A stretch of 64,000 nt of DNA, taken from positions 1 through 64,000 of IMG/VR virus record IMGVR_UViG_3300009448_000012. One strand, written 5' to 3'. Of the stretch, positions 5,543 through 21,263 are shown piece by piece; the stretch's first letter is position 1, and each line of letters starts with the position of its first letter. The position numbers and the translations under genes are program-made. The notes under the pieces are model-generated. The model worked only from the letters and a program-made list of their open reading frames with translations, made no database searches and was not told where the DNA came from. Source of the stretch: a virus.

Positions 5543-7283
5543 GAAAATCGCCGTCGCGCCGGTGCATCCCTCGGCGGTTGGTCTGGAGCCGATCGCGGCG
5601 CCGATGATCCCGACGAACTGGCAAGGGGCGTTCGCCCGGCTGGTGGACAGCGTCACGATCGTCGTCACCGCGCAGGCGAAGAAGGTCGCGGACCTGACCC
5701 AAGCGCTCGCCGACGCGAACGGGCTGATCGCCGCGCTGACCAAGAAACAGGCGGATGATTACGCGCTGCTGGCGAAAGGGCTGGTTGGTCAGAACATCGC
5801 CGGCATTCGCGACGAAGCGAGCGAGATCCGCGCGGACCTGACCGACATCGCCGGCAAGGTCGAAGCGCTGATCAAGGGTCGCGCCGAGATCGTCGACAAC
5901 GTCCGCGCGACCGACAAGCGGATCGACGCCTTGCCGTCCGTGCATGAGACGGTCGCGAAGGTCGGCGAGATGGTCGCGGCCGGATACGAACATTCGATCA
6001 AGCTGATCACCGACATGACCGTCGAGAAGGTCACAGCGCTGGAGGCGGCCGCCGGCGCCGCGCGGGATATCGCCGAGGCGGTCCGCGACGAAGTCCGGAC
6101 GGTGGCGACCGGTCTCGGCGACCTGACCGAGACGCACACCGCGACGCGGCGCCAGCTCGACGCCCTTGCGTCCGACGTGAACGATATCGGCGAGGACCTT
6201 GGCGGCAAGGTGTCCGCGCTGACCAAGGGGCATTCCGACCTCACCGCGGCGAACTCGGAAAACGCCGCGGCGAATTCGAAGCTCGCCGCGGTCGTGACCG
6301 AGCACGTCGACCGGCTCGGCGCCAATCTCGGCACGCTCGAAGAACGGGTCGAGGACGCGGCGGCGAAGTTCGGCGACAAGGTGTCCGAACTGAAGGATCT
6401 GGTCGAGGACTACGCTTCGACGGCGAGCAGCGAAGACGCCGGGCTTGCGGACCAGCTCGGGAAGCTCGACGGTCATGTGACGGCCGCGCGTGAGGTCGCC
6501 GACGCCGCCCGCACGCGCGCGGCCGAAGCGATGAGCCATTGCAACGATCTTTCCGGCACGGTGAGCGCGATCATCAAGGCGCGGGCGGATGAGGCTGATC
6601 AATTCGCCGAGACGGTCGAGACGGTTGGGAACCAGGTTAAAACCATGGTCGACGACCTCGCCGCGCAATTCGGCGAAATGAGTCAGATGTCGGTCGACGA
6701 CGCCAAGCGGATCGAGCAGGTCGAGGAAACGGCGCGGACGATCGGCGCCGAGGTCCAGGGGCTCGCGAAGGTGATCGAAGCATGCCGCGACGCCGGCGCC
6801 GAGATCGCGACCGATGTGACGGACATGCTTCGCCGTGTGACCATCTCGCTTGGTCAAATGCCTTCCGGGTTCATGATCGACCAGGACGGCGAGCTTGTGC
6901 GGGTTGCGCAGTCGGGCGAGGTGACGAAGATCGGCAAGGTGGTGTCGCACGGCCGCGACGCACCGGAAATCGTTTCCGTGAAGATGGAAGGCGAGCGGTT
7001 GATTTTCGCTCGATCGGATCGGACTGAGATCGGATGCACGGTCGTTCGCGCGACCGTCGAGCCGGCGCCGGCGATCACCGGACCCGACGCGGTCGATCCG
7101 CTGACGATCGGCGCCCTGTCGAAGGACCCGGCATTGCTGGCGCGGCAGGTCGAACACATGGCCGAAATGCGGGCGGGTGGTAAAAAATATAAGGAAATAT
7201 CGGAGAAATTTGGTACTTCTGAAAAAACGGTCGCCAAGCTGATCAGGGGTTATCAGAATGCCCAAACTAAAAAAGACGCCTAA
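5532..7283 (+). CDS. Long coiled-coil head-module protein with C-terminal HTH-like motif
   Basis: Heptad Ala/Leu/Asp-rich body, IDQDGELV..GKVV motif, C-terminal KKYKEISEKFGTSEKTVAKLI. Confidence 0.8.
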   Translation: MAIKKIAVAPVHPSAVGLEPIAAPMIPTNWQGAFARLVDSVTIVVTAQAKKVADLTQALADANGLIAALTKKQADDYALLAKGLVGQNIAGIRDEASEIRADLTDIAGKVEALIKGRAEIVDNVRATDKRIDALPSVHETVAKVGEMVAAGYEHSIKLITDMTVEKVTALEAAAGAARDIAEAVRDEVRTVATGLGDLTETHTATRRQLDALASDVNDIGEDLGGKVSALTKGHSDLTAANSENAAANSKLAAVVTEHVDRLGANLGTLEERVEDAAAKFGDKVSELKDLVEDYASTASSEDAGLADQLGKLDGHVTAAREVADAARTRAAEAMSHCNDLSGTVSAIIKARADEADQFAETVETVGNQVKTMVDDLAAQFGEMSQMSVDDAKRIEQVEETARTIGAEVQGLAKVIEACRDAGAEIATDVTDMLRRVTISLGQMPSGFMIDQDGELVRVAQSGEVTKIGKVVSHGRDAPEIVSVKMEGERLIFARSDRTEIGCTVVRATVEPAPAITGPDAVDPLTIGALSKDPALLARQVEHMAEMRAGGKKYKEISEKFGTSEKTVAKLIRGYQNAQTKKDA

Positions 7284-8027: not shown

Positions 8028-9479
8028 ATGGCCAAACGGCTTCATGTCATGCCTGACTTTCCGGAAATCCCGGCGGGCCTGATCGTTTACGGGATCACGA
8101 ACGACGCGCAAGATCGTCTTGTCGCGCTTCGCGAGGAACAGGCGGACGCGCAGGCGGAAGCCGAAGCCATCGTCGCGGCCGCCGATGACGATAACCGCGA
8201 CCTGACCGACGACGAAGCGAAGACGGTCGCGGAACTCAAGAGCCAGATTGACCGGCTCGAAACGCAGATCACCGCCCGCGCGGCCGTGGTTCGCGCGCCG
8301 TCGCCCGGCCGCCAGACCCGGCCGGAGCCGGAGACCAATCGCGGCGCCCGTGGCAACCAGACGCCCGCACCGCGTCGCGGCAACACCGTGCCGGCCTCGC
8401 CGAAGAACCGCAACGATGAAGCCACCTTCGGCTTCGGCTCGTTCGGCCTGTTTGCGCAGACCGTCCGCGTCGCGCAGGTCGGCAAGGGTGCCGATGGGTC
8501 CGACGCTCGCGAGCGTCTGCACAATGCCACGACGACGTTCGGCAACGAAGGCACCGGCGGCGACGGCGGCTTCCTGGTCCCGCCCGATTTCCGGAACCAG
8601 ATCTGGACGAAGGTGCTCGGCGAAGAGTCCCTAGTGTCCCGCACCGAACAGCTCGTGACGTCCGGCAACGGCCTGACGATCCCGGCTGACGAGACGGCGC
8701 CTTGGGATACGTCCAGCGCCGGCGGCATCCAGGCTTATTGGGAAAGCGAAGGCGGCGTCAAGACCCCGTCCAAGCCCGCTTTCGAGGCCAAGAACGCCCG
8801 TCTGAACAAGCTGATCTGTCTGGTTCCCGTCACCGACGAACTGTTGGAAGACGCGCCCGGCCTGGAAAGCTGGCTTCGTGCGAAGGCGCCGGTCAAGATG
8901 ACCAGCAAGCTGAACACGGCGCTCATTCGCGGGACCGGCGTCGGTCAGCCGCTCGGCGTCCTGACCGCCGGTTCGCTGGTGACGATCTCGAAGGAGACGT
9001 CGCAGAACGCCGACAGCATCGTCGCGATGAACATCTCGAAGATGTGGAACCGGCTCTATGCGCCGTTGCGCCGCAACGCCGTGTGGCTGATCAACCAGGA
9101 CATCGAGTCTCAGCTCGACTTCCTCGCCTTCCCCGATGCGGCCGGCGGTCATCCCGTCCCGCTGTACATGCCGGCCGGCGGCCTGTCCGCATCGCCGTAC
9201 AGCACGCTGAAGGGTCGTCCGGTGATCCCGGTCGAGGCAACCAGCACGCTCGGCGACAAGGGTGACATCATCCTTACCGACCTGTCGCAGTACATGACCC
9301 TGACCAAGGGCCGCGACATCAAGACCGACGTCTCGATCCATCTCTATTTCGATCAGGACATCACCGCGTTCCGCTTTGTTCTCCGCATCACCGGTCAGCC
9401 GATGTGGAACAACGTCATCACGCCGCAGTTCGGTTCGATGACCCGTTCTTGGGCGGTCACGCTCGAAGATCGCACCTAG
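8028..9479 (+). CDS. Major capsid protein, HK97 fold with N-terminal delta domain
   Basis: DGGFLVPPDF, W..EG, VTDELLED, G.G.GQPLG, TLKGRPV; GAGGA RBS. Confidence 0.97.
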   Translation: MAKRLHVMPDFPEIPAGLIVYGITNDAQDRLVALREEQADAQAEAEAIVAAADDDNRDLTDDEAKTVAELKSQIDRLETQITARAAVVRAPSPGRQTRPEPETNRGARGNQTPAPRRGNTVPASPKNRNDEATFGFGSFGLFAQTVRVAQVGKGADGSDARERLHNATTTFGNEGTGGDGGFLVPPDFRNQIWTKVLGEESLVSRTEQLVTSGNGLTIPADETAPWDTSSAGGIQAYWESEGGVKTPSKPAFEAKNARLNKLICLVPVTDELLEDAPGLESWLRAKAPVKMTSKLNTALIRGTGVGQPLGVLTAGSLVTISKETSQNADSIVAMNISKMWNRLYAPLRRNAVWLINQDIESQLDFLAFPDAAGGHPVPLYMPAGGLSASPYSTLKGRPVIPVEATSTLGDKGDIILTDLSQYMTLTKGRDIKTDVSIHLYFDQDITAFRFVLRITGQPMWNNVITPQFGSMTRSWAVTLEDRT

Positions 9480-10062: not shown

Positions 10063-10131
10063 CCGTCGATCGCCTTTCCGAACGACCCCGGCGGTGGAGA
10101 TCCATCGTCGGGACGGTTTTCCCAATACTTA

Positions 10132-10159
10132 CCGGCTGGCGATCGTGCCGGCCTTTTCT
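10132..10159 (+). terminator. Putative intrinsic terminator
   Basis: CCGGC..GCCGG followed by CCTTTTCT. Confidence 0.4.
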
Positions 10160-10172
10160 GGTGGGTCATATC

Positions 10173-10565
10173 ATGCCGAAAATTAGGTTCATTGAGCCGG
10201 CGACGATCGAACATCACGATCGTCGGGAGACGATCAAGGTCGGGACGGTCATGGACGTGACCGAGGCCAGCGCCACGCGTTGGGAACGCCGTGGTAAGGT
10301 CGAGCGGATCGACGAGTATGTCGCGCCGCAGATGCCGTTCACGCCGCCGGCGCCCGCATCGGTCCAGCCGCCCGCGCCAGTCGCACCACCAGCACCACCA
10401 GCACCGCCCGCGCCGCCGGCTCCGGAGCCTGAAGCCGACACGGCCGCGACGCCGGCGCCCGTCGCACCACCAGCACCGCCCGCGCCGCCGGCGCCCGCAC
10501 CGAAGCCGCGCGGCCGCCCGTCCAACAAGCCGGCCGCCGAGGGCTCGGACCCTTTGGCCCAATAG
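10173..10565 (+). CDS. Small head-module protein with Pro/Ala-rich tail
   Basis: ~50 aa globular N-terminus followed by duplicated PAPVAPPAPPAPPAP repeats. Confidence 0.85.
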   Translation: MPKIRFIEPATIEHHDRRETIKVGTVMDVTEASATRWERRGKVERIDEYVAPQMPFTPPAPASVQPPAPVAPPAPPAPPAPPAPEPEADTAATPAPVAPPAPPAPPAPAPKPRGRPSNKPAAEGSDPLAQ

Positions 10566-11197
10566 GCAGCACCTTCCCGGACTGGCGAGGCGAAACGGTC
10601 GCGGTCGTCGCGGCCGGGCAATCTGCCGAAAGCATCATGACCGCGATCACGCCGGGCTCGTTCCGGGTGATCGCGGTCAATCGGTCTTACCAGCTAGTCC
10701 CATGGGCCGAATGCCTGTACGCGGCCGATGCCGGATTTTGGAAGCACTACAAGGCGACCGGCTTCAAGGGCTGGCGCTTCTGTGCTGACGAGACGATCAG
10801 ATACATCGACGCGAGCGTTCACGCGGTCAAGATTGCCCGCGATCCCAAAGATCGCAGGCTGACGGAAATGGTCGCCGGACCGATCGGGACGGTCGGGTTC
10901 GGTGGTAACAGCGGATATCAGGCCGTTAATCTCGCCGCGCAGTTTGGAGCGCGACGGATCTTGCTTGTCGGTTTCGATTATTGCGGGGCGCATTGGCACC
11001 CTGACCACCCGAAGACTTTGCGCAATCCCACGGGCGCGGAATTCAGGCGATGGGCGATGGACCTCGACCGGGCGGCGGGAACGCTGAAGTCATGGGGGAT
11101 CGAGGTCCTGAATCTGTCGCCGGTCAGTAAATTAAGGGCTTTTCCATATGCCGACAGCCGTCTGTTTGATTCGGGACAACGTCCATTATCGGCATGA
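10550..11197 (+). CDS. Maf/DUF115-like glycosyltransferase-like domain; first in-frame ATG is at 10637
   Basis: WRGETVAVVAAGQS, VIAVN, LYAAD..FW, GGNSGYQAVNLA..FGARRILLVGFD. The conserved first strand lies upstream of any start codon (see findings). Confidence 0.7.
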   Translation, partial: PFGPIGSTFPDWRGETVAVVAAGQSAESIMTAITPGSFRVIAVNRSYQLVPWAECLYAADAGFWKHYKATGFKGWRFCADETIRYIDASVHAVKIARDPKDRRLTEMVAGPIGTVGFGGNSGYQAVNLAAQFGARRILLVGFDYCGAHWHPDHPKTLRNPTGAEFRRWAMDLDRAAGTLKSWGIEVLNLSPVSKLRAFPYADSRLFDSGQRPLSA

Positions 11198-11936
11198 TGC
11201 CTTTATTCGCGGCCTTGCCGCGCTCGGGTACACCGTGCGGACGAAGCCGCTCCAGCGCATAGCCGCCGACGACGTCCTGGTGATCTGGAATCGGGGCGCG
11301 CAATTCCAGTTCGAGGCGACCCGCCACACCAAAGCCGGGTCGCCGATCATCGTCGCGGAAAACGGGTACACCGACGCCGTCGACGACCATGGGCATCAGT
11401 GGTTTTCGCTCGCGCTCGACCATCATAACGGCGTCGGGCGCTGGTGGATCGAGGACCAGCCGCGCTTCCCGTCCATGGGCCAAGCCGTGGCGCCGTGGCG
11501 GGCTGAAGGGTCCTTCATCCTGGTGTTGCCGCAACGCGGCATTGGGGCGCCCGGCGTGGCCATGCCGCAGTCTTGGCCGCGCCTGATCGCGCAACGGCTC
11601 GCCAAGGTCACGGCGCGGCCGGTGCGCATCCGCGCGCATCCTGGTCTCAAGTCCTTGGCTAAGCCGCTGGCGCCCGCGCTGGAGGGCTGTCACGCCGTCG
11701 TGACTTGGGGATCAGGCGCGGCGCTGAAAGCGATCATGCTCGGCGTTCCCGCCTTCCACGAACTTCCCGGATGGATCGGCGCGCCGGCCGCGCGCTTCGG
11801 CATCGACCAGGGCGTCGAAAACCCCTTCCTCGGCGATCGCGGTCCGATGCTCGAACGAATGGCATGGTCACAATGGCCGATCGCCGACATCGCCGCCGGG
11901 ACCGCCTTTCGCACCCTTCTGAAATGCAATCACTGA
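11148..11936 (+). CDS. Capsule-synthesis (KpsS/KpsC-like) GT-B glycosyltransferase, paralog 1
   Basis: ENGY, VRIRAHP, VVTWGSGAALKAIMLGVP, C-terminal AWSQW...I..G. Confidence 0.7.
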   Translation: MPTAVCLIRDNVHYRHDAFIRGLAALGYTVRTKPLQRIAADDVLVIWNRGAQFQFEATRHTKAGSPIIVAENGYTDAVDDHGHQWFSLALDHHNGVGRWWIEDQPRFPSMGQAVAPWRAEGSFILVLPQRGIGAPGVAMPQSWPRLIAQRLAKVTARPVRIRAHPGLKSLAKPLAPALEGCHAVVTWGSGAALKAIMLGVPAFHELPGWIGAPAARFGIDQGVENPFLGDRGPMLERMAWSQWPIADIAAGTAFRTLLKCNH

Positions 11937-20816: not shown

Positions 20817-21263
20817 ATGGGCGCTTTCGATGACGTGACCTTTCAGTGGGCAGGGGTCAGCTATACCATCCCTGCCAACAAAATGATGGGTGCGATCGCC
20901 CGCATCGAGGACCATGTGACCATGCCGGAGCTTCAGCGTTTCGGCGAGCGGGGGGCCGTTCCGCTGTCCCGCCTCGCCGGCGCCTTCGCTTCCGTCCTTC
21001 GATATGCCGGCGCCAATGTGGTGCATGAAGACGTTTACGCGGCGATGTTTGCCGGCGCGGAAAAACAAATGGAAGTCGCCGAAGCCGTCTCGCTCTTAAT
21101 GGCCATGATGGTTCCGGCGGGGTCCCGCGACAAGATCCTGAAGGTCGCCGAGGAAGCCAAAGCCGCCGGAGCAGTGCCGCCGGGAAACCCCGTCCCGGCC
21201 GCGACCGCTTCGTCGAAGAAGCTTACAAAATCGCGGTCGGGCAAGCGTGGGTCTCGCCTGTAG
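20817..21263 (+). CDS. Tail assembly chaperone (G)
   Basis: Lies between tail tube and tape measure; carries slippery G GGA AAC at 21182-21188. Confidence 0.85.
   Translation: MGAFDDVTFQWAGVSYTIPANKMMGAIARIEDHVTMPELQRFGERGAVPLSRLAGAFASVLRYAGANVVHEDVYAAMFAGAEKQMEVAEAVSLLMAMMVPAGSRDKILKVAEEAKAAGAVPPGNPVPAATASSKKLTKSRSGKRGSRL

Follow-up and report, generated by a model that had tools for sequence, protein, structure and literature searches.

How is an enzyme made from a reading frame that has no start codon? The question is raised by a locus in positions 1–64,000 of the 74.5-kb IMG/VR virus record IMGVR_UViG_3300009448_000012, the whole of which stretch is referred to in the following as the window. 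Here, an open reading frame (ORF) for a small protein of the head module, called the zero frame, is followed in the −1 frame by a gene for a putative glycosyltransferase. On the evidence of the sequence, we consider it probable (roughly 80%) that the transferase is made through a −1 ribosomal frameshift at C_CCT_TTG (10550–10556) and forms one recoded gene with the upstream ORF at 10173–10565. The features on which the argument turns are the following:

10173–10565 (+): zero-frame ORF of 130 amino acids (aa), comprising the N-domain, a Pro-rich linker, the basic segment PKPRGRPSNK, the slip site and the stop codon TAG at 10563–10565 (translation, homologs)
10173–10337 (+): conserved small N-domain, four strands, a helix and a strand (alignment A5; AlphaFold2, predicted local distance difference test (pLDDT) 85)
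10500–10529 (+): AT-hook-like basic segment PKPRGRPSNK (translation; RGRP or K/R-rich tails in most related loci)
10539–10543 (+): Shine–Dalgarno (SD)-like GAGGG, 6 nucleotides (nt) 5′ of the heptamer, a possible 5′ stimulator (suggestive only)
10550–10556 (+): slip site C_CCT_TTG, holding the tetramer C_CCT
10553–11197 (+): transferase part in the −1 frame, stop codon 11195–11197; predicted fusion of 341 aa (phrog_4603, weak Pfam MptE-like match, 263 homologs)
10562–10564 (+): ATA overlapping the TAG stop, a candidate non-canonical start
10610–10624 (+): AAGQS loop, counterpart of ASGPS in relatives, upstream of the first ATG (alignment A1)
10637–10639 (+): ATG, the first canonical start in the transferase frame and the one chosen by the gene caller (186 aa, database entry P0001)

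The transferase frame and the in-phase slip site

The transferase frame opens at 10433, following a TGA at 10430–10432. Between 10433 and 10636 it contains no ATG, GTG or TTG, and the only near-cognate codons are ATA at 10562 and ATC at 10634. The zero-frame ORF ends in GAC CCT TTG GCC CAA TAG. The original prediction had described this ORF end, the open but start-less transferase frame up to 10637 and the GAGGG at 10539–10543, and all of these sequence statements hold. It had also called the frame conserved-looking upstream of ATG 10637, and the homologs bear this out: similarity to stand-alone relatives extends 5′ of 10637, to TFPDWRGETVAVVAAGQS at 10571–10624, and in alignment A1 the N-terminal pattern (F/W)PDW.G..V.V.A.G.S, represented in the window by FPDW.G and AAGQS, is conserved, with the loop G and S (G62, S64) kept in at least 90% of the sequences. 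A product begun at 10637 would therefore be without this segment. Most of the 263 database homologs are 200–217 aa long, and about half of the closest ones are called from internal starts at or after the conserved segment, which hints that their contigs, too, are without an upstream start.

One alternative is that the gene is decaying or truncated and gives a 186-aa protein from ATG 10637, or nothing. This ATG is indeed the first canonical start, and the 186-aa call stands in the database. However, initiation there drops both the FPDW.G segment and the AAGQS loop, and the original prediction had seen no clear ribosome binding site in front of it. In addition, the upstream frame is open and conserved in 13 clusters of related loci, described below, which decay would not preserve. 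We regard decay or truncation as improbable.

The slip site itself was proposed as a correctly phased heptamer whose −1 frame is the transferase frame, and this was confirmed: CCT and TTG are zero-frame codons, the −1 frame is that of the transferase, and no other in-phase heptamer occurs in the overlap. Heptamers of the X_XXY_YYZ class occur 51 times in the 64-kb window, so that 0.035 would be expected in phase in the 44-codon overlap and 0.004 in its last five codons. Only 2 of the 34 Pro codons in the zero-frame ORF are CCT, and only the one at the junction is preceded by C. C_CCU_UUG is on the list of frameshift-prone motifs in E. coli (PMC4066793).

Since the record is a metagenomic contig, the frame break might instead be an assembly or sequencing indel, the true phage having a continuous ORF or an ordinary start. 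In run X2, from a second groundwater study, two low-depth Logan contigs that are identical to the window meet at 10552: one ends and the other begins there, within the heptamer, where an indel might be suspected. A coverage gap or a variant branch may account for this break. The X2 pieces match on both sides, however, and a 45.7-kb Logan contig at a depth of 19.5, from the probable source run, is identical to the window over 10100–11300. This exact match of a second, independent assembly makes an indel, which the original prediction had named as a danger, unlikely. The same break in the same direction is also found in unrelated samples and in the sequenced isolates S20 and D3, and CCC and TTT are not error-prone homopolymers. 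Taken together, we consider an artifact of this kind extremely unlikely.

Recurrence among related loci and isolates

For the comparison, 28 viral and 80 metagenomic loci were fetched and dereplicated to 89 homolog loci. In about 39 of these, no canonical start lies within about 27 codons upstream of the conserved anchor W, and in many of the start-less loci the open frame is also free of ATA, ATT, ATC and CTG. The upstream gene in the start-less loci is a small ORF of about 95–160 aa with a common N-terminal domain of about 45 aa (alignment A5). A hidden Markov model (HMM) of this N-domain matched 31 loci at E<1e-5, falling into 13 clusters at 50% transferase identity. In all 31, the N-domain lies in the frame from which a −1 shift is required to reach the transferase, and none has a start near the anchor W. 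Conversely, no locus with a canonical start near the anchor matched the N-domain HMM. The homologs in phage P1 (pmgO) and Citrobacter phiNP, tried as start-less members, were rejected, having ordinary ATG or GTG starts.

The overlap windows of these loci are enriched for slippery sequences in the right phase. CCCT occurred 27 times in phase, versus 3 and 12 times in the other two phases, and XXXYYYN heptamers 14 times, versus 2 and 4. Nearly all of the 31 loci have C_CCU, C_CCC, U_UUU, A_AAA, C_CCU_UUG/A/U, C_CCA_AAA/G or G_GGA_AAC at the junction, the commonest being C_CCU with A or U next. The closest relatives of the window (L001, L030 and L031) have G_GGA_AAC, and an identical GACCCTTTGG, that is, the heptamer with its flanks, is found at the junction in the window, in phage S20 and in L076. 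Thus, an in-phase slip motif recurs at the junction in homologs, a comparison that the original prediction had proposed as a check, and the exact motif varies. All such motifs were measured in E. coli by Sharma et al. 2014 (PMC4066793): C_CCU, C_CCC, U_UUU and A_AAA belong to six functional tetramers, C_CC.U_UU.N and C_CC.A_AA.R heptamers gave more than 0.1% frameshifting without stimulators, and G_GGA_AAC is weak yet common in insertion sequence (IS) elements. All of the junction motifs seen here fall among the shift-prone or IS-used motifs of that study.

In some loci, stop codons in the transferase frame would confine the shift to the motif: the frame opens only one codon before it in L108 and L003, three in L072 and seven in L073. 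Ungapped identity of both frames around the motif did not distinguish the frames and is uninformative, because the frames shadow each other. Natural variants of the gene pair also occur. In P0049 (264 aa) and L070, the N-domain and the transferase are in one frame, and in L007 they are separate genes overlapping by ATGA. Split, putatively recoded and fused forms of one pair are the traces expected of a real two-domain product. The frameshift first proposed for the window alone is thus supported by the same layout in 13 diverged clusters, by tight stop codons and by natural in-frame fusions.

The shift might instead occur at the RNA level by transcriptional slippage, and the junctions of L006 and L003 do contain runs of A7 and A5, respectively. 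However, most junctions, that of the window included, have only three identical bases, and three-base runs are far too short for transcriptional slippage. The conserved feature is, moreover, the codon phase, which is relevant to ribosomes and irrelevant to RNA polymerase. Slippage of the polymerase is therefore very unlikely to be the explanation.

A further alternative is that the transferase initiates at ATA 10562, which overlaps the upstream stop (ATAG), by translational coupling, giving a stand-alone enzyme of 211 aa. ATA is a possible start in NCBI table 11, and L001 and L003 likewise have an ATA across the stop of the upstream ORF. However, L031 (61% identity) has GTA at this position, and since the ATA over the stop is absent there and elsewhere, we treat it as a coincidence. 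No ATA, ATT, ATC or CTG occurs in the open frame of L037, L041, L048, L052, L072, L073 and L108; in S20 the frame opens at CCC TTT, and there is no near-cognate codon before WWPKW. In the window, no SD lies 5–10 nt upstream of ATA 10562. Initiation at ATA would also leave the frame relation in 31 of 31 loci and the in-phase motifs unexplained, and we consider it quite improbable.

The proposed −1 frameshift can be followed into two isolates. In Tetraselmis viridis virus S20 (NC_020840.1) the gene order is head protease, major head protein, N-domain ORF (hhalign 91%) and transferase. Its zero frame reads GAT GAT GAT GAC CCT TTG, so that four TGA codons block the transferase frame until CCC TTT GGG is reached, and no start codon, canonical or otherwise, precedes the conserved WWPKW that comes next. 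Pseudomonas phage D3 has, behind its major head gene orf6, the ORF orf6.5 with the N-domain (hhalign 79%, E 1.6e-5) and the tail RRRGRPSARTQRSD, and then the transferase orf7. The products predicted for D3 are a protein of 95 aa (about 10 kDa) and a fusion of roughly 240 aa (about 25 kDa) with the junction ..ESEIPK-ACGWR... Here ATC CCA AAG provides an in-phase C_CCA_AAG (L113:1780–1786, record 5837–5843), and the orf7 frame has no canonical start before ASGPS. Thus, orf6.5/orf7 of D3 and TVGG_00050/00049 of S20 represent the same system as the window, with a major head protein, an N-domain ORF and a start-less transferase in the −1 frame. The slip motif of S20 is identical to that of the window, whereas D3 has C_CCA_AAG, and unlike the window both are without the long Pro-rich linker and have the basic tail after the slip site. 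The frameshift is annotated in neither record. The public starts lie past the ASGPS-type loop, RefSeq beginning orf7 at a downstream ATC (NC_002484.2, L113:1894) and TVGG_00049 beginning at L112:2274 (NC_020840.1); both are probable mis-annotations, because the proper start is missing.

Several potential stimulators of slippage were considered. On the 5′ side, pairing to the anti-SD in 28 loci was on average about 1 kcal/mol stronger for 8-mers ending 7–13 nt before the motif, a weak signal from loci that are related to one another, and G is found at −14 in 19 of 20 C_CCU loci. The interval 7–13 nt upstream is the range in which an SD-like element aids −1 shifting in dnaX and IS elements. SD-type stimulators of frameshifting exist (PMC5009743). 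On the 3′ side, RNA folding found only one strong hairpin, GGTCGCGGTCGTC..GATCATGACCGCGATC at 10597–10648, which includes the first ATG of the transferase frame. Lying about 40 nt from the slip site, it is too distant to act as a classic stimulator, and the fold did not reach significance in comparison with shuffled sequences. For eight relatives, the RNAalifold consensus was weak (−5.3 kcal/mol), and a GGCGCCC/GGGCGCC stem noticed by eye as a 3′ stimulator was rejected, since it holds in close relatives only.

Several points weigh against the frameshift and must be set beside this evidence. In every member of the family, both the shift and the fusion are predictions from sequence and comparison. 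Neither RNA folding downstream of the site (z-score −0.77) nor the eight-relative alignment gave a significant or conserved 3′ stem-loop or pseudoknot, and the 5′ SD-like helper at the slip site, with its weak signal, is only suggestive. The tetramers seen here are barely shifty in E. coli without a stimulator (PMC4066793), and in bacteria UUG is a suboptimal codon for the A site, so that the efficiency may be well under 1%. The N-domain HMM was trained on 24 of the 31 loci that it matched, and only L026, L030, L038, L045, L049, S20 and D3 are therefore independent of it. The closest database homologs, P0002, P0003, P0005, P0007 and P0014, have a called start 3–5 codons before TFPDW; some relatives thus seem to initiate independently, and the fusion would not be obligatory for the enzyme. 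Finally, the M from which P0007 and P0014 are called falls exactly on ATA 10562 in the alignment.

Predicted products and the head module

From the frames, the missing start, the in-phase motif and the conservation of all of these in the loci compared, we infer that ribosomes slip at the junction, how often they do so and to what end. Most ribosomes would stay in the zero frame and stop at TAG 10563, producing the 130-aa protein with its N-domain, Pro-rich linker and RGRP tail. A fraction would slip one base back at C_CCT_TTG, either through tRNA-Pro alone moving from CCU to CCC or through tRNA-Pro and tRNA-Leu jointly, and would continue in the −1 frame to 11197. The resulting 341-aa fusion would join the whole small protein to a CstII/Maf/MptE-like glycosyltransferase, with a predicted junction GSDP-(F/L)-GPIGSTFPDW (that is, GSDPF/LGPIGSTFPDWR). 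This would follow the logic of gag-pol, the bulk head-module protein carrying a small, fixed share of enzyme. The transferase would perhaps be brought to the assembling head in this way, leading to glycosylation of virion proteins, and the role of the fusion may be to tether the enzyme, which the original prediction took to be a priming transferase, to the capsid.

The zero-frame ORF likely starts at ATG 10173, which has GGTGGG ahead of it, and at the corresponding ATG the products of close homologs open with MPKIEF or MVTIRF. The basic tail (10500–10529) precedes the slip site in the window and its close relatives, so both products would carry it. AT-hook-like basic ends (RGRP, KRRGRPRK, RKTRRRRK) were seen on the zero-frame proteins of the window, L027, L043, L073, L108, L112 and L113. 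Where such a tail overlaps the N-terminus of the transferase, the tail may in part only reflect the other frame (VVVASGPS appearing as SSSS..); in window-type loci the tail is present without any such overlap. Hypothetical readthrough of TAG 10563 would extend the zero frame to TGA 10638–10640, overlapping ATG 10637 as ATGA. Since it is the −1 frame whose coding is conserved in this part, we regard the extension and overlap as coincidental.

The enzymatic assignment came from several searches. The extended transferase frame matches phrog_4603 (E 2.6e-35, profile positions 1–167 of 178), starting from upstream of ATG 10637; the label of this PHROG, alpha-2,3-sialyltransferase, is to be read as a family annotation name only. 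The match to Pfam MptE-like/DUF115 (PF01973) scored 18.7 bits against a gathering cut-off of 34.6 and covered only the last 30 profile positions, and many more distant homologs carry a precomputed PF01973 match. A profile sequence search of the PDB with the transferase gave no match, blastn of phages gave none, and a scan of genome contigs found no relative. The model of the in-frame relative P0049 (pLDDT 87.5), used as a stand-in for the window protein, resembles CstII 1ro7 (E 1.7e-4), MptE HPPK 8sd5 (1.7e-4) and Maf 5mu5 (1.3e-3), with template modeling (TM) scores of about 0.45–0.5. Judging by this model, the transferase part appears to be glycosyltransferase-like in fold. Some homologs with ordinary starts, PAJU2 ORF010 (AP009624.1, L114:1783–2352) and one in Klebsiella phage vB_KvM-Eowyn (H37), bear the label "structural protein", which is an unchecked label of the depositors. 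Taken at face value, it would fit a connection with the virion and suggests that the enzyme may be virion-associated.

Profile A5 retrieved 359 representative proteins, nearly all of 47–160 aa, with the domain at the N-terminus. Relatives found in this way match phrog_2616, which has no assigned function, with E down to 2e-9, and two A5 members match DUF7210 weakly; the zero-frame protein of the window has no direct PHROG or Pfam match. P0246 (275 aa) combines the N-domain with an in-frame sulfotransferase domain (PF13469), and P0170 combines it with a second, copy-like DUF7210 segment. The N-domain looks like a portable module joined to different modifying enzymes. A fold search with the N-domain matched the GINS B-domain and the L9 N-domain (Z 5.0–5.7), the lambda gpFI C-domain 2lsm (Z 4.4) and YqbF 2hjq (Z 4.1); this is a common small fold, and the matches give no functional inference. 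The predicted complex between the major head protein and the N-domain scored 0.00, which speaks neither for nor against contact between them.

Two further features lie upstream:

8028–9479 (+): major head protein gene, after a ClpP-like protease ORF (context; phrog_10 position in related loci)
10132–10172 (+): terminator-like hairpin with a T run, then the GGTGGG Shine–Dalgarno before ATG 10173 (read from sequence)

In the window, a 168-aa ORF sits between the major head protein gene and the N-domain ORF, and in eight of ten related loci tested the ORF directly 5′ of the N-domain ORF is the phrog_10 major head protein. The label "head protein" for the zero-frame product would come only from this conserved position in the head module. 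The hairpin, CCGGC..GCCGG with its T run, follows the 168-aa ORF and precedes the N-domain ORF, and may attenuate transcription downstream of the abundant head genes. A comparable arrangement of hairpin and SD seems likely in L001, L003 and L030, to judge by their upstream frames.

Comparison with known systems

The loci described here may be part of a wider class of recoding in tailed phages, a proposal that we make tentatively and at somewhat less than even odds. In this class, a −1 slip, in many cases at a bare C_CCU assisted by an SD-like sequence on its 5′ side, would join a small head-module domain encoded directly behind or near the major capsid gene to enzymes that modify the virion, and the domain would act as an address tag that doses the enzyme to the assembling capsid. 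Phage D3 would lend itself as a model. The usual enzyme would be the Maf/CstII-like glycosyltransferase, the same domain also occurring in frame with a sulfotransferase. The records examined carry no annotation of such a class, and no description of this frameshift was found in the searchable literature, most subscription journals lying outside the search. Relative to that literature, what appears new is the pair of genes and the frequent use of a bare C_CCU; the mechanism as such is a known one.

If real, this would add to the tail chaperone a second family of conserved programmed frameshifts in tailed phages, and for the first time one that connects a head-module protein with an enzyme. In many genomes annotation would be corrected, since internal or non-canonical starts now yield truncated transferase calls, as in D3 orf7 and S20 TVGG_00049. 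It would also offer a concrete route for dosing, and perhaps delivering, virion-glycosylating enzymes to capsids, as well as natural C_CCU tetramer sites for work on the mechanism of frameshifting. Phage glycosylation reportedly affects immune recognition of therapeutic phages, a finding attributed to Freeman and coworkers in 2023 and said to be limited so far to mycobacteriophages.

A close known system is the lambda-like tail chaperone pair G/GT (PMC5009743), and the window has a site of this kind as well. G_GGA_AAC at 21182–21188 is in phase with the ORF at 20817–21263, with a T-like extension (..WQMTPQEFHW..) encoded in the −1 frame. This would bring the number of programmed frameshifts in the phage to two, in agreement with the idea, present from the outset, that the head-module site is a second one. 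In both systems, each from tailed phages, a −1 slip takes place shortly before a small morphogenetic ORF ends, and a short product is accompanied by a C-terminally extended fusion in a fixed ratio; for the window, slip and products are predicted. In both, the position is conserved and the heptamer varies. The G/GT pair, however, is located between the genes for tail tube and tape measure, whereas the site in the window belongs to the head module, where the major head protein gene and the 168-aa ORF precede it. An enzyme takes the place of the tail-tube-binding T domain as the extension, and many members use a bare C_CCU tetramer instead of a heptamer.

A second parallel is with retroviral gag-pol and with orfA-orfB of IS3/IS911, in which low-frequency fusion joins a start-less enzyme to an abundant protein without enzymatic function, as predicted here. 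IS elements often combine an upstream SD-like stimulator with the motif G_GGA_AAC (PMC5009743, PMC4066793). In contrast to these systems, with which there is no homology, the enzyme in the window is glycosyltransferase-like. The Maf flagellin glycosyltransferases, CstII (GT42) and archaeal MptE (PF01973) share the fold of the transferase part, as seen in the P0049 model, at a sequence identity of about 10–16% and with a Pfam score below the curated cut-off, and unlike the fusion proposed here none of them is made by frameshifting.

Programmed frameshifts in phage head genes, outside the tail chaperone, have precedents. In T7 gene 10A/10B, and in cps of Listeria phage PSA, where the shift is +1, the major capsid protein gains a short tail. 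The PSA frameshift is cited in PMC5009743. Unlike these cases, it would be a separate small protein that gains a whole enzyme domain at the junction described here.

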